Below the pieces are notes generated by a model, which was given only the letters and a program-made list of their open reading frames with translations, ran no database searches and was not told the DNA's origin. The translations under genes were made by a program, and so were the position numbers. From the NCBI RefSeq assembly GCF_003334315.1, contig NZ_QOWR01000001.1: a DNA stretch of 64,000 nt, one strand, 5' to 3'. The DNA is from Escherichia coli (GTDB lineage Bacteria > Pseudomonadota > Gammaproteobacteria > Enterobacterales > Enterobacteriaceae). Below, piece by piece: positions 55,576 through 55,603 of this stretch (the stretch's first letter is position 1; each line of letters opens with the position of its first letter).

Positions 55576-55603
55576 GTATGACGAATACTTAAAATCGTCA
55601 TAC
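55576..55603. promoter_or_regulatory. NikR operator at the nikA promoter
   Basis: GTATGA-N16-TCATAC dyad (gtatgacgaatacttaaaatcgtcatac), about 40 nt upstream of the nikA ATG. Confidence 0.8.

Follow-up and report, generated by a model that had tools for sequence, protein, structure and literature searches.

The 28-bp dyad at positions 55576-55603 of this Escherichia coli DNA is the textbook NikR operator of nikABCDE-nikR, a site already known and characterised. Its sequence, GTATGACGAATACTTAAAATCGTCATAC, departs from GTATGA-N16-TCATAC at no position; in the promoter of nikABCDE this motif is bound by Ni(II)-NikR with an affinity in the nanomolar range (PMC7055735, citing Chivers & Sauer 2000, 2002 and Bloom & Zamble 2004). 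How close is the site before us to the one on which the biochemistry was done? Over its 130 bp the promoter region shows 100% identity to K-12 MG1655, and it is present in every complete E. coli genome (5426/5426), and the NikR encoded here agrees at 133/133 residues with the protein chain of PDB entries 1Q5V, 2HZA, 2HZV and 3OD2, among which 2HZV is the NikR-operator co-crystal. It is the combination of the motif quoted in reviews, complete promoter identity to K-12 and identity to the crystallised NikR that equates this site with the studied operator.

Judged from its sequence, the cognate repressor encoded at nikR has an intact ribbon-helix-helix (RHH) DNA-binding domain and an intact His3Cys Ni site, and residues R3, T5, T7, K64, R65, H76, H87, H89 and C95 are all present. 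Going by the NikR structures (Schreiter 2003/2006), we take R3, T5, T7, H76, H87, H89 and C95 to be the DNA-contact residues and Ni ligands. K64 and R65 make a backbone contact (PMC2875016), and in the co-crystal the beta-sheet of each RHH domain lies in the major groove of one GTATGA half-site (PMC4486848). Under Ni-replete conditions, E. coli NikR represses only the Ni-specific ABC importer (PMC11672702). Ni-dependent gel shifts, footprints and dyad mutations are among the experiments that reviews cite for this operator (Chivers & Sauer 2000, cited in PMC7055735); a literature text search with the verbatim 28-mer returned no match. A preliminary description, made from the letters of this DNA, had claimed that the dyad follows the known NikR recognition architecture, and this is upheld by the motif as published in reviews, the K-12-identical promoter, the crystallised NikR and conservation across species. 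Taking the K-12 and NikR identities together with the evolutionary footprint described below, and the binding data from the literature, we regard it as nearly certain that the dyad is the operator through which nikABCDE-nikR is repressed in a Ni-dependent manner; none of our results speaks against it.

The dyad, its promoter and the nik operon

Throughout, the window means the whole 64-kb stretch of DNA that was analysed, and the features that matter here are collected in Table 1. The preliminary description had reported an exact GTATGA-N16-TCATAC dyad lying just upstream of nikA, with nikR closing that operon at its 3' end, and all three statements hold. Sequence read-out and a motif search both recover the dyad, whose half-sites are separated by 16 bp within a site of 28 bp in all, and whose exact motif occurs once in the window; its 3' end lies 37 bp from the nikA ATG; and nikR begins 5 bp after nikE.

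Table 1. Operator, promoter and operon features at the nik locus, in window coordinates
Feature	Position	Strand	Basis
NikR operator core GTATGA-N16-TCATAC	55576..55603	.	Half-sites 55576-55581 and 55598-55603; exact match, K-12 identity, published operator
Full perfect palindrome AGTATGACGA-N10-TCGTCATACT	55575..55604	.	Complementarity map; 10-bp stem in fold
FNR box TTGAT-CCAG-AACAG, predicted class II activator site	55555..55568	+	Centre 55561.5; TTGAT invariant across species, downstream ..CA conserved
Predicted -10 hexamer TAAAAT of the nikA promoter	55590..55595	+	Inside operator spacer; TA[A/G]AAT highly conserved across species
Predicted transcription start	55602 (+/-1 bp)	+	FNR centre 55561.5 + 40.5, and -10 position
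nikA, periplasmic nickel-binding protein	55641..57215	+	TIGR02294 nickel_nikA equivalog, 834 bits vs cutoff 393; RefSeq annotation
nikB, nikC, nikD, nikE, permeases and ATPases of the Ni ABC importer	57215..60556	+	NCBIfam equivalogs above cutoff; RefSeq
nikR, Ni-responsive ribbon-helix-helix repressor	60562..60963	+	NF002815 and TIGR02793 above cutoff

The symmetry extends further than first stated, since the dyad sits within a perfect inverted repeat of 10-N10-10 geometry. The only other perfect long palindrome of that geometry in the window, GCCGAAAAGG-N10-CCTTTTCGGC at 47145-47174, falls within the yhhL coding region when coordinates are mapped to NZ_CP033096.1.

Could the dyad be a chance inverted repeat with no function? 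Perfect 6-N16-6 dyads of arbitrary sequence are indeed common, with 27 in the window against about 16 expected, so significance comes from the particular half-site sequence and its location, not from dyad symmetry alone. On that measure the picture changes: from base composition, the expected number of copies of the 12 specific bases is 0.003 in a 64-kb window and 5e-6 in the 110 bp between acpT and nikA. Looser matches behave differently. Allowing up to two mismatches, the window holds three matches to the NikR motif where shuffled sequence gives 1.57, and the two besides the operator, at 10224 and 63322, each carry two mismatches; we set both aside, as their frequency is that of chance. The second of them (63322-63349) lies inside rhsB.

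The operator is interleaved with a predicted promoter. A genome-wide study counts nikABCDE among the operons that FNR activates directly in E. coli: a ChIP-seq peak is present, sigma-70 occupancy rises under anaerobic conditions, and the best-scoring site lies at -40.5 (PMC3688515). The 14-bp FNR box that we place upstream of the dyad by sequence inference, TTGATCCAGAACAG, has, against TTGAT-N4-ATCAA, a perfect left half and matches at 3/5 positions in its right half. Setting its centre at -40.5 would put +1 at the predicted start in Table 1 and TAAAAT at exactly -12..-7, and the operator would then run from about -26 to +2, enclosing the predicted -10 hexamer. A generic sigma-70 promoter scan of 55400-55750 found no promoter. 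Such a negative is unsurprising, and uninformative, for a class II promoter that depends on FNR and lacks a -35 element.

The window is E. coli chromosome, and the locus is nikABCDE-nikR. The annotated order around the site is acpT, nikA, nikB, nikC, nikD, nikE, nikR and rhsB, and all six Nik proteins exceed curated NCBIfam equivalog cutoffs, NikR scoring 235 bits against a cutoff of 83 with one model and 225 against 175 with another. The 6.2-kb stretch around the site is matched in all 5,426 complete E. coli genomes. Several strains match it at 100% identity, and the strain here need not be K-12. Downstream of nikR, rhsB (61166-64000) is a pseudogene with an internal stop in a reference record that is 100% identical. 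Elsewhere in the window, the small RNA RyhB is encoded at 23661-23725 on the minus strand (Rfam RF00057, 83 bits); it was the only match at the gathering threshold in an Rfam scan of the whole window, and there was none at the nik promoter.

Conservation within Escherichia and across species

Within E. coli the operator is close to invariant. Queried with 3 bp of flank on either side (34 bp), it has an unbroken identical run of 28 bases or more in 5300/5426 genomes, the other 126 having no 28-base exact word in the query, and it is single-copy per genome in nearly all of them. In the most divergent Escherichia promoters sampled, every substitution falls outside the FNR box, the operator with its -10 element, and the stretch down to the start codon.

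Two Escherichia genomes carry insertions between operator and gene. In Escherichia sp. E1V33 (L002:6481-7003), the FNR box and the exact NikR dyad are intact, and about 430 bp have been inserted directly after TCATACT, close to the predicted transcription start. The insert holds 3.1 copies of an 81-bp repeat (L002:6643-6894), the right flank of the operator recurs in degenerate form (AATCGTCGCCATACTTATTTC) just before nikA, and with the insertion the 5' leader of nik would be unusually long and filled with repeats. In Escherichia sp. MOD1-EC7003 (approximately L004:6852-6965), an insertion of about 112 bp lies between the operator and the nikA start, so that the dyad now stands 149 bp upstream. 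This insertion (...AAGTAAGTGACTGAGGTGCACGAACG...GCAACTTGAAGTATGACGAGTATA) resembles an ERIC/IRU element. It happens to carry GTATGACG, a half-site-like string.

Beyond the genus, we compared 80 nikA loci, one per species, searching 300 bp upstream of each nikA. The dyad is exact in 53 of these species and has one mismatch in a further 24, that is, 77/80 at no more than one mismatch, and the N16 spacer is kept in 75 of the 77 orthologous sites. Its distance to the start codon is 19-41 bp in nearly all species that have it, and the taxa concerned reach from Escherichia, Citrobacter, Klebsiella, Enterobacter, Kosakonia and Edwardsiella to Halomonas and several Rhizobiales. As controls we took 345 windows of equal size from these loci; not one had a match with one mismatch or fewer, the best being four windows with two. 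That a dyad is held at this level in 77 of 80 species against 0/345 controls while its flanks diverge, and is near-invariant in E. coli, adds to the base-composition statistics in ruling out a functionless chance repeat, a reading whose probability we consider practically nil.

A column profile of 68 unique Enterobacterales promoter sequences, anchored on the dyad, gives the footprint its shape. Three near-invariant blocks stand at fixed spacing, TTGATCcag..cA followed by aGTATGAtGAaT and then by TAaAATC.TCAtACtt, with flanks that cannot be aligned; these blocks are the FNR half-site, the two NikR half-sites and the predicted TAAAAT -10 inside the operator spacer. Conservation reaches beyond the 6-mers, the profile consensus being aGTATGAtGA...TC.TCAtACt, and the same consensus is found in the enterobacterial NikR box derived earlier by comparative genomics, GTATGAT-N13/14-ATCATAC (PMC545781). 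Why should the spacer of an operator be conserved at all? The constancy of GAaT...TAaAATC may be explained by the embedded -10 hexamer and not by NikR contacts. In that case operator and promoter would be interleaved and evolve together as one, in Enterobacterales and as far afield as some alpha- and other gamma-proteobacteria.

The conservation pattern also bears on whether the palindrome acts as RNA, instead of or besides acting as operator DNA, whether as a read-through terminator or attenuator of acpT or as a structure in the nik 5'-UTR. As RNA, positions 55565-55615 form a hairpin with a 10-bp stem at -15.6 kcal/mol (z = -5.7 vs shuffles), located 45 bp past the acpT stop and followed by UUAUUU. 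A stable fold is, however, automatic for any perfect palindrome, and a terminator scan of 55400-55750 was null, the hairpin having a 10-nt loop, few GC pairs and a poor T-run. With transcription predicted to start near 55602, the hairpin would lie outside the nik mRNA; as for acpT, that gene is upstream of nikA in Escherichia, at four Citrobacter loci, at one Superficieibacter locus and nowhere else among the 80, whereas the dyad travels with nikA in 77 species. What is conserved, moreover, is the half-sites as sequence (GTATGA is invariant), not mere complementarity, and they keep a constant distance from the FNR box and the -10; direct binding by NikR is published (PMC7055735). We therefore reject the RNA hairpin or terminator on the null terminator scan, the predicted start and the conservation pattern, and consider it very unlikely to account for the palindrome.

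Gene order at the other loci offers two further observations on the NikR operator. In five alpha-proteobacterial and related loci of distant species (L068, L069, L070, L073 and L081, at about 6300-7000), a nikR whose product is 48-52% identical lies upstream of nikA in divergent orientation, not at the 3' end as in E. coli, and a dyad of the same GTATGA-N16-TCATAC type occupies the shared nikR-nikA intergenic region, an arrangement that suggests autoregulation through the dyad. Conversely, a tblastn search of 7-kb flanks, in which some loci are incomplete, did not find nikR at L012, L018, L045-L050, L052, L075, L079 and others, though the dyad is kept there; such loci come from Atlantibacter, Edwardsiella, some Citrobacter, Halomonas and Arsenophonus, and their nikR is presumably encoded elsewhere.

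Proposed mechanism and other possible inputs

The nik operator is a classic model of nickel-dependent repression, in which a tetrameric ribbon-helix-helix protein reads half-sites two turns apart. At this locus, sufficient cytoplasmic Ni(II) would occupy all four high-affinity sites on the NikR tetramer, whose two RHH domains would then each engage one GTATGA half-site through the major groove, the half-sites being spaced by two helical turns. If, as we infer, the operator covers about -26 to +2 of a class II promoter that depends on FNR, bound NikR would occlude RNA polymerase, and synthesis of the nickel importer would be shut off. Ni-dependent binding and repression, as well as activation by FNR, come from the literature, and steric occlusion and the exact start site are the steps we propose from the arrangement of the elements. 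With nikR the last gene of the operon, NikR made from the nikA promoter would feed back negatively on its own synthesis. A weak separate promoter for nikR has reportedly been described as well (De Pina et al. 1999).

Is NikR the only protein that reads this sequence? TACTTAT at 55601-55607 is a perfect TACYYMT NarL heptamer that overlaps both the right NikR half-site and the predicted transcription start, and comparison of species shows moderate conservation of the 'tt' that follows TCATAC. Repression of nikABCDE is also reported to respond to nitrate through NarLX (Rowe et al. 2005). It could be argued that another regulator such as NarL is the main protein acting at the site, with NikR secondary. 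Against this, one such heptamer is expected about 0.1 times in the intergenic region by chance (an estimate from its degeneracy), conservation tracks the NikR dyad symmetry and not the NarL 7-2-7 arrangement, and NikR binding is published (PMC7055735), which leaves NarL at most an additional, overlapping input. That NikR is the secondary reader here strikes us as extremely unlikely. The heptamer itself could be linked to nitrate/NarLX repression of nik, or it could be there by chance; our literature search found no useful paper covering NikR, FNR and NarL together at nik. Some further direct role for the operator region, either an input such as the NarL heptamer acting in nitrate repression or, in Escherichia, the palindrome doubling as a weak acpT read-through terminator, is a possibility that we consider unlikely.

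What does the NikR operator at this locus teach? It does not change existing knowledge. Its value is that of a positive control, a validated operator recognised from raw sequence. What we add is modest: the palindrome extends to 10-N10-10, and the comparison of 80 species shows the FNR box, the predicted -10 and the NikR half-sites to be interleaved and conserved together as a single unit.

Relation to known NikR systems

The closest relative of this site is the K-12 nikABCDE operator itself (Chivers & Sauer 2000/2002; 2HZV, Schreiter et al. 2006), with which it shares motif, promoter, NikR and operon, and from which no difference is detectable. Set against the enterobacterial consensus, the E. 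coli copy differs at inner position 7, where most genera have T/A and E. coli has C/G (GTATGAC...GTCATAC).

More distant members of the family preserve the general scheme while differing in its details. The Helicobacter pylori NikR operators (ureA, nixA and others) are bound by the same repressor family, in which a ribbon-helix-helix domain is joined to a Ni-binding tetramerisation domain, and likewise consist of two half-sites and a spacer. By contrast with the site here, which is the single high-specificity operator of the E. coli type, HpNikR is pleiotropic, acting as both activator and repressor through a weak and different consensus. In delta-proteobacteria, NikR boxes of the form GTGTTAC-N13/14-GTAACAC precede nikMQO (PMC545781); these differ from E. 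coli in half-site sequence and in transporter family, yet they keep the same 27-28 bp inverted-repeat architecture before a nickel importer.
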